Position numbers and translations under genes: made by a program. 30,191 nt of DNA. Origin: a virus. This document shows, piece by piece, positions 20,253 through 21,350 of this stretch. The DNA lies in the UHGV virus genome UHGV-0176705, one strand, 5' to 3'. The notes below the pieces were generated by a model that was not told the origin of the DNA, did not search any database, and worked only from the letters and a program-made list of their open reading frames with translations. Numbering within the stretch: position 1 is the stretch's first letter; every line of letters begins with the position of its first letter.

Positions 20253-21350
20253 TTAGAACTGGTAAACCATACCAACAGCAACAATATCGTCGGTGTTTAT
20301 ACCAAGACCTCTGGTGAAATCATTTTTGTCAAGCAGGTTGATTTTGTAATCAACGAAAGTAGACATATTTTTGTTGAAGTAATAGGTTGCGCCTACATCA
20401 ACATATTTAACTAAGTCTTGATCGCCCCATACTCCGAGATCCTTACCTTTAGATTGCAGGTAAGCAACGGACGGACGCAGCCCAAAATCGAACTGATATT
20501 GTGCAACAGCCTCAACGTTCTGAGCTTTATTGGCGACGAAGCGATCAGCAAATACCGTCATATTCTGGGTTTCAGAATAGGTAGTGGCTAGGTAAATGTT
20601 GTTAGCGTCATATTTCAGACCAGCGGCCCAAACTTCTGCATTTTTACCGGAAGCAAATACTCCAGGAAGAACTTTCCCTAGATTAACCTGAGTGTCGGTA
20701 CGGTCAGATTTCGCATAAGTTGCACCAATACCGAATCCTTCGTATTCATAGGTAGCAGAGAAACCAAAGCCATCACCATTACCTTTGGTGTAGTTATCGA
20801 AACCGCTACGATCGTTTTTGCCTTGGTACTGGGCGGCAAAGTTCAGGCCATCAACCAGACCAAAGAAGTCGTTGTTACGGTAAGTTGCAACACCAGTAGC
20901 ACGTTGGGTCATGAATACATCTGTTTGAGTCCAGGTATCGCCACCGAATTCCGGCAGAACATCGGTCCATGCGCCGATATCGTATGCTACACCGTAGTTA
21001 CGACCATAATCGATGGAGCCGTAGTCACCGAATTTCAGGCCAGCGAACGCAAGGCGAGTTTTATCCCCGGAAGAACCTTGAGATTCAGCACGGTTGCCTT
21101 TGAATTCATATTCCCACTGACCGAAACCAGTCAGTTGATCGTTGATTTGGGTTTCGCCTTTGAAGCCCAGACGAGCATAAGTTTTGTCACCATCGTGTTT
21201 ATCGTTAGAGGAGAAGTAGTGCTCGGCATTAACTTTTCCGTACAGATCCAGTTTGTTGCTGTCTTTGTTATAAATCTCTGCTGCCTGAGCAGACATCGCC
21301 ATTAATACTGACGCAGCTACAGCAGAGATTGCCACTGTTAATTTTTTCAT
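20253..21350 (-). CDS. nmpC: General porin of the OmpC/OmpF/PhoE family, prophage-encoded (NmpC/Lc-like moron)
   Basis: Signal peptide [24 protein letters not shown]-terminal [17 protein letters not shown]-terminal ...YKINLLD...VGMVYQF ending in Phe. The symbol rests on family plus the position between Q and the lysis genes, as in DLP12/PA-2. Confidence 0.85.

Follow-up and report, generated by a model that had tools for sequence, protein, structure and literature searches.

The porin Lc of phage PA-2 (gene lc, GenBank J02580) replaces host OmpC, and with it outer-membrane permeability and the set of phage and colicin receptors change. The Escherichia coli K-12 prophage DLP12 carries a homologue, NmpC, at the same position, i.e., next to the antiterminator gene Q. 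IpeX, the structured 3′ untranslated region (3′UTR) associated with such porin genes, lowers the synthesis of host OmpC and has been assigned a trans-acting role in published work (PMC12197685, PMC5069750), with further aspects of its biology covered elsewhere (PMC7177473). At the other end of the gene, a 199-bp region upstream of nmpC acts as a promoter in K-12 (PMC11677980).

Here, we analyze a related locus in UHGV virus genome UHGV-0176705, of which the whole stretch of 30,191 nucleotides is referred to as the window. The window holds a lambdoid prophage in which a porin gene, encoded on the opposite strand, separates Q from the late (lysis) genes; it is tail to tail with Q at a distance of 192 bp. 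This is the position and orientation of lc in PA-2 and nmpC in DLP12, and the flanks are AT-rich, as is typical of a moron. We consider it about 85% probable that the promoter, the porin gene, and an IpeX-like 3′UTR make up a self-contained lysogenic-conversion unit, through which the phage porin would be made in the lysogen while host OmpC is lowered, altering permeability and the receptors for phages and colicins. The coordinates of all features are collected in Table 1.

The porin gene is complete. Its product covers the whole Pfam Porin_1 model (1–337 of 337, E = 1e-154) and scores 530 bits against the NCBIfam ‘porin OmpC’ subfamily, for which the cutoff is 484. Residues 24–365 align end to end with the mature chains of OmpC, OmpK36, PhoE, and OmpF from crystal structures (E ~1e-138 to 1e-108), e.g., with residues 1–343 of the OmpC chain 2xe2 (E = 3.5e-138). 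Read directly, the translation has a Sec signal peptide with an AXA cleavage site (SAQA followed by AEIYNK), the L3 constriction motif PEFGGD, and a C-terminus ending in VYQF, with the aromatic Phe as the last residue. From an identity of about two-thirds to solved OmpC, we infer a trimeric 16-stranded β-barrel with channel activity. Compared with PA-2 Lc, 345 of 365 residues are identical (94.5%), both proteins have 365 residues and the same signal peptide, and the alignment contains 0 gap columns. The identity to NmpC is 96.8% (335/346) over the codons that precede the IS5 insertion sequence in K-12, and 77% to Salmonella OmpD, a member of the same porin clade. No frameshift, truncation, or insertion sequence was found in alignments to Lc, NmpC, and other porins. 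Thus, the description given by the first-pass annotation of this DNA, an intact OmpC/OmpF-family porin gene with a signal peptide, uninterrupted, convergent with Q, and placed as in PA-2 and DLP12, holds.

An identical porin protein is already present in public data. The arrangement Q–porin–small open reading frame (ORF)–methylase recurs in 17 complete E. coli genomes at 85–96% DNA identity (12 of them at ≥94%), where the porin counterpart is annotated ‘porin OmpC’. Substitutions relative to Lc and NmpC fall at codons 43–56, 95, 183–189, 224–230, 270–279, and 347–352, nearly all of them in what we take to be surface loops L1, L2, L4, L5, L6, and L8, with loop limits as in the OmpF/OmpC structures. 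Against Lc alone, there are 20 substitutions, mostly in these predicted loops, and the window allele has ~5 more positive charges. Such clustering and the extra charge fit a diversifying pressure on exposed epitopes or receptors.

The DNA between the porin and Q stop codons is highly structured. Folding of positions 20150–20255 is far more stable than that of shuffled sequence (z = −9.5 and −8.9 for the + and − strands, respectively), and five hairpins were located in the spacer, i.e., the three listed in Table 1 and two more at 20151–20168 and 20234–20253, which bears out an earlier count of at least three. We aligned the sequences that follow the porin stop codon in ten sources: the window, E. 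coli 025542-1, K-12 DLP12, PA-2, ev099, 2G7b, PhiR34_1, P7 with a relative, the Escherichia fergusonii chromosome, and a transposase-flanked island. The same multi-hairpin region lies 3′ of the porin gene in all of them. Across three helices of this ten-sequence alignment, 95.5% of the cells are paired, with compensatory changes at six pairs. Covariation scores 0.31, as compared with 0.17 for shuffles (0/500 reach 0.31) and ≤0.11 for slid controls. The stem of the terminator hairpin is kept in all homologues, and compensatory changes are found at the base of the 20200–20233 stem. In the hairpin with the invariant CCCUCA loop, the closing pair is UA (4), AU (3), or GC (2), and the second pair is GC (6), AU (3), or GU (1). 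An nhmmer profile of the UTR, built without the window and without its closest relative, gave a single match in the whole 30-kb window, at 20064–20245 on the − strand (E = 3e-21). By this conservation of structure and place, the spacer hairpins are mainly the structured 3′UTR of the porin mRNA, a diverged homologue of IpeX.

An Rfam search of 19900–21900, at gathering thresholds and at E ≤ 10, returned neither IpeX nor any other meaningful match. When genome contigs were scanned with a degenerate pattern of the IpeX loop and linker, most matches were chance ones in unrelated metagenome-assembled genomes, and only three E. coli loci came up. A 53-aa ORF at 20067–20228 on the − strand, within the spacer, was dismissed as spurious, given its overlap with the conserved RNA hairpins.

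The first-pass annotation saw these hairpins as multiple terminators insulating two convergent genes, and the strongest alternative to our reading is that they are just that, a plain terminator stack with no RNA function. Hairpins followed by T-runs do exist on both strands, from 20109 to 20092 on the − strand and at 20200–20233 on the + strand, and folding far better than chance is what such a stack would also show. On the + strand, the hairpin and its T-run ATCTTTTT span 20200–20243, and among the aligned copies, only the lambdoid ones next to Q have the A-run that yields this T-run, so one hairpin probably doubles as a Q-sense terminator and the proposed insulation survives as a secondary role for that hairpin. 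However, a U-run follows only one hairpin per strand, and termination needs neither the invariant CCCUCA loop nor the unpaired CUGUUAU linker. Further, the same UTR follows the porin gene where there is no Q nearby, as in P7 and P1-like plasmids (where the next gene is ssb), on the E. fergusonii chromosome (trkH), and in the transposase-flanked island. The UTR therefore belongs to the porin unit rather than to Q. Along with the published trans-acting role of the IpeX UTR (PMC12197685, PMC5069750), these observations make a pure terminator stack unlikely.

On the E. fergusonii chromosome (locus L041/L042, 869–3800), the porin is 83% identical to that of the window, is followed by an IpeX-like 3′UTR (nhmmer E = 1e-32), and sits beside a second porin gene and trkH in a context that does not look like a prophage. 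The porin and its UTR may be a unit of chromosomal origin that predates phage capture.

The linker between the third hairpin and the terminator, in which the invariant CUGUUAU and its flanks are unpaired, is complementary to ompC mRNA. We measured pairing by an ungapped helix search and by linker-only duplexes; full-length RNAduplex predictions of IpeX against porin 5′UTRs were discarded, as the duplexes were unrealistically long. The window segment AACCUUCUGUUAU forms 13 contiguous pairs with positions −19 to −7 of K-12 ompC, a run reached by 3/300 dinucleotide shuffles, and DLP12-type alleles form 15 (0–1/300 shuffles). The duplex of the window linker with the ompC translation-start region has an energy of −18.2 kcal/mol (matched by 2/500 shuffles), compared with −26.7 kcal/mol for DLP12 IpeX, and linker-only duplexes with this region range from −18 to −27 kcal/mol across all ten homologues (0–6/500 shuffles). 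Pairing with the ompF start region is significant in eight homologues, including DLP12 (−18.6 kcal/mol, 2/500 shuffles), whereas it is at chance level for the window linker (−12.8 kcal/mol, 123/500 shuffles). The phage porin’s own translation-start region is likewise paired only at chance level (326/500 shuffles for the window). That the window’s IpeX allele appears to keep the ompC pairing and not the ompF pairing is mildly new. A tentative and rather doubtful extension of this pattern is that IpeX-family UTRs pair antisense through the linker with the start regions of host porin mRNAs, that alleles differ in their targets, and that the window allele, through AACCUUCUGUUAU and ompC −19 to −7, would swap out OmpC only. 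If true, direct linker pairing would provide a simple mechanism for an RNA whose action the literature calls unexplained by complementarity alone.

Upstream of the porin gene, the 133 bp that include a TGTGA half-site are conserved with lc and nmpC, and the DNA beyond ~21483 is unrelated. The half-site belongs to the CRP-like sequence TGTGATCAAGATCTCG (21467–21482), and the PA-2 record annotates its CRP site 109–129 nt upstream of the lc ATG. TTGAAA (21438–21433) is conserved, and no convincing −10 element was found at a spacing of 16–18 bp by eye or by scan. Transcription of the porin gene in the lysogen is probably driven by its own predicted promoter in a CRP-dependent manner, by analogy with PA-2 and K-12. 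The whole of 21351–21800 had been taken for the porin’s own upstream region; this is correct for 21351–21483, but 21596–21690 holds the late promoter pR′ and the first hairpin after it, and a small late ORF begins at 21803.

A second alternative makes the porin gene a silent passenger that chance or recent acquisition has left intact and that is neither expressed nor selected in the lysogen. There are precedents for silence, as nmpC is interrupted by IS5 and silent in K-12, and an IS5-like interruption is found in SE11; a missing consensus σ70 promoter on the − strand upstream of the gene points the same way. The codon differences speak against it. Synonymous and non-synonymous changes stand at 69:20 relative to lc and 31:3 relative to the nearest allele, and because synonymous changes far outnumber the others, purifying selection is indicated; together with the alignments, these counts show a gene that is intact and under purifying selection. 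Also unexpected for a passenger, 130 bp upstream, including the CRP-like site, are conserved across alleles that are flanked by unrelated sequence beyond; the amino acid differences lie, as far as the presumed loop limits allow, nearly all in predicted surface loops; and in K-12, the activity of the nmpC promoter suffices for expression of the IS5 transposase (PMC11677980). A silent passenger is thus very unlikely.

A self-contained conversion unit could work as follows. The AT-rich promoter region with its CRP-like site would drive transcription of the porin gene in the lysogen, as the PA-2 and K-12 data suggest, and the gene would make a Sec-exported general-diffusion porin. The co-transcribed 3′UTR would lower host OmpC, a step suggested by its conserved structure and by the complementarity of 13 nt of the linker to the ompC Shine–Dalgarno region. 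Host OmpC would then be replaced by the phage porin, with a change in permeability and the removal or alteration of a phage or colicin receptor. Intactness, homology, position, conservation of the RNA structure, and complementarity can be read from the DNA itself; expression in the lysogen, control by CRP, repression of ompC, and an exclusion phenotype are inferred.

Several points weigh against this scheme. The consensus scan of the − strand upstream of the porin gene found no promoter hexamers. The 3′UTR is only 64% identical to the characterized IpeX DNA of K-12 DLP12, as compared with a nucleotide identity of 91% between the coding region and PA-2 lc, so its activity is presumed from homology. 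The ompC and ompF targets used for pairing were those of K-12 and may differ from those of the host. The primary IpeX paper by Castillo-Keller et al. from 2006 reportedly found no complementarity. IpeX regulation does not rest on complementarity alone according to a review (PMC12197685), and the computed pairing may not be the actual mechanism.

The late promoter pR′ lies beyond the porin promoter and points away from it. Its −35 region forms the palindrome TTTACGTACGTAAA (21596–21609), likely the Q-binding element, in line with dimeric binding of 82Q to its site, as has been proposed (PMC4914094). The assignment of pR′ rests on homology to the Stx-phage PR′, whose start was mapped by differential RNA sequencing 258 nt upstream of the tR′ 3′ end (PMC7547250); the same distance in locus L037 puts the start 6–7 nt after the pR′ −10, and in the window, the start is expected at ~21629–21630. 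The element and the downstream sequence GTTAAGAGTGGTCACTTTGCCACACAGCTT are conserved elsewhere. Stx1 and Stx2a phages carry them directly behind Q, DLP12 has them beyond the region upstream of nmpC, and in PhiR55_1, where another reverse-strand ORF occupies the slot, they come after this ORF. Q-dependent antitermination is predicted at this site. As pR′ lies beyond the porin promoter and faces away, late transcription does not cross the porin gene. By the order and orientation of these elements, the porin unit is flanked by Q on one side and by Q’s cognate pR′ on the other; it is back to back with pR′ and lies outside the predicted late transcription unit. A Q-dependent promoter directly after Q (20061–20252), whose late transcripts would pass antisense to the porin gene and silence it in lytic growth, is extremely unlikely: pR′ does follow Q directly in λ and in the Stx phages examined, but the promoter scan found no promoter-like site in 20061–20252, and homology to the mapped Stx PR′, which covers the −35, palindrome, −10, and initially transcribed region, falls at 21596–21660, after the inserted gene, as it also does in DLP12 and PhiR55_1.

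Table 1. Features of the porin unit and its neighborhood in the window; positions are those of the 30,191-nt stretch.
Feature	Position	Strand	Basis and remarks
Antiterminator Q, 82/QuuD type, 127 aa	19677–20060	+	Pfam Phage_antitermQ PF06530, 1–118 of 118; 83% identical to K-12 QuuD
IpeX-like structured 3′UTR of porin mRNA, ~169 nt, stop codon to terminator U-run	20084–20252	−	Alignments, profile match, covariation
GC hairpin GGGGCGUUUUUACGCCCC then CUUUUUAUU, predicted intrinsic terminator of the porin/IpeX transcript	20092–20109	−	Terminator scan, fold; 32 nt from the Q stop codon
Invariant unpaired linker segment AACCUUCUGUUAU	20141→20129	−	Complementary to the ompC mRNA Shine–Dalgarno region
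Hairpin with invariant loop CCCUCA and covarying stem	20178–20195	−	Loop identical in 10/10 sequences
15-bp hairpin, part of IpeX; on the + strand followed by ATCTTTTT, candidate Q-sense terminator	20200–20233	both	Terminator scan, fold
Porin coding sequence, ATG start, 365 aa, Lc/NmpC type	20253–21350	−	ORF list, Pfam, alignments
Porin signal peptide (codons 1–23)	21282–21350	−	Mature protein 342 aa
Porin 5′UTR and putative promoter region	21351–21483	−	Homologous to the lc/nmpC upstream region
CRP-like site TGTGATCAAGATCTCG	about 21463–21484	−	Counterpart of the CRP site in the PA-2 record
Predicted late promoter pR′, 82/Stx type, TTTACG-N16-TATGAT	21596–21623	+	Promoter scan and homology
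First late-operon ORF, 65 aa	21803–22010	+	ORF list, terminator scan; strong terminator over the stop codon (21987–22004 plus T-run)

Downstream of pR′, a weak hairpin with a T-run is found at ~21653–21680. This first hairpin is degenerate in the window lineage (CCAGCCG…CGGGG plus U6), and RNAfold favors a different stem, GCCGC…GCGGC, which phiP27 also seems able to form; the modeled structures may compete. The 65-aa ORF that opens the late operon has no Pfam or NCBIfam match; its homologue in phiP27 is listed in RefSeq as a TrmB-family regulator. Lysogens could express this ORF if pR′ has the constitutive activity known from Stx phages. The module of small ORF, DNA methylase, and tRNA is common to phiP27, SfV, and many Stx phages. 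Elsewhere, other cargo occupies the slot between Q and pR′, i.e., a reverse-strand 148-aa ORF in PhiR55_1 (L003, 811–1257) and a forward 409-aa ORF in phiP27 (L004, 267–1496), and the slot looks like a general moron insertion site.

The prophage as a whole has the order integrase, S24-family repressor, Rha and Ash proteins, replication genes, Q, porin, DNA methylase, tRNA-Arg, holins, endolysin, and terminase, and the DNA that flanks it is 99.7–99.9% identical to E. coli genomes. An origin outside E. coli, considered in view of a best match of just 95.6%, was rejected on account of this flanking identity. The left end of the window (1–7500) is not core chromosome: it carries response-regulator and ATP-binding genes, an IS3-family match, and a second integrase-like ORF (4172–5443, − strand) ahead of the prophage integrase at 7566–8774. 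The prophage may lie beside or inside another integrative element. At 15206–15394 on the + strand, two Rfam matches above gathering scores, isrK (55 bits) and the adjoining C4 antisense RNA (84 bits), fall inside or overlap an Ash/Rha-family ORF (15149–15811) in an arrangement that resembles the antirepressor control module of the P1/P7 or Gifsy type. A single tRNA-Arg(UCU) is located at 23419–23495 on the + strand, between the methylase and holin genes, where related prophages have four tRNAs (Ile, Arg, Thr, and Gly). Stx phages carry tRNAs and stx at the tRNA position; there is no toxin gene at that position in the window.

Lc/NmpC porins, their Q-adjacent position, and IpeX have all been described before, and the finding, although real, is ordinary and matters little on its own. 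Its uses are practical. A ‘terminator stack’ that follows an Lc/NmpC-type porin gene should be annotated as an IpeX-like RNA, and the slot between Q and pR′ can be regarded as a cargo site that late transcription is not expected to cross. The differences among IpeX alleles in predicted pairing with ompC and ompF offer an inexpensive route to experiments on how prophages remodel the porin composition of the host.

Compared with the known systems, at the sequence level, the unit has all the features that define an Lc/NmpC-family porin with an IpeX-family 3′UTR and an 82/Stx-type Q–pR′ pair. Like the porin gene of the window, lc of PA-2 is divergent from the lysis genes, has the conserved CRP-site region, and is followed by a homologous structured 3′UTR. 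However, the 3′UTR of the window is only ~64% identical to that of PA-2, the upstream DNA is unrelated beyond ~−133, and pR′ is followed by the small ORF, methylase, and tRNA rather than directly by S-R-Rz. DLP12 has the same order as the window, with a QuuD-type Q, IpeX and the porin on the opposite strand, and pR′, and in both, the linker is predicted to pair with the ompC start. An IS5 insertion breaks K-12 nmpC after codon 346; the window copy, in contrast, is intact.

The closest relative is the prophage of E. coli 025542-1, with a porin identical at 362 of 365 positions (99.2%) and free of indels. In this and 16 other complete genomes, gene order is the same from the replication genes through Q, porin, small ORF, methylase, and tRNAs to lysis and terminase. 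DNA identity between the window and the 025542-1 prophage is 95.6% over 2.6 kb, dropping to 80% in the 3′UTR; prophages of this type have four tRNAs instead of one, and a 16-bp match to the translation-start region of ompF survives in their IpeX allele. More distantly, NmpC of the P1-like plasmid prophage P7 (80% identical) belongs to the same porin clade and has a recognizable IpeX-like 3′UTR, but it lacks the Q or pR′ context and neighbors ssb. In summary, the window differs from the characterized examples by ~5% amino acid divergence, mostly in the loops, a strongly diverged IpeX allele that lacks significant ompF pairing, unrelated distal upstream DNA, and a Stx-like late-proximal module, and none of these four differences is surprising in mosaic lambdoid phages.

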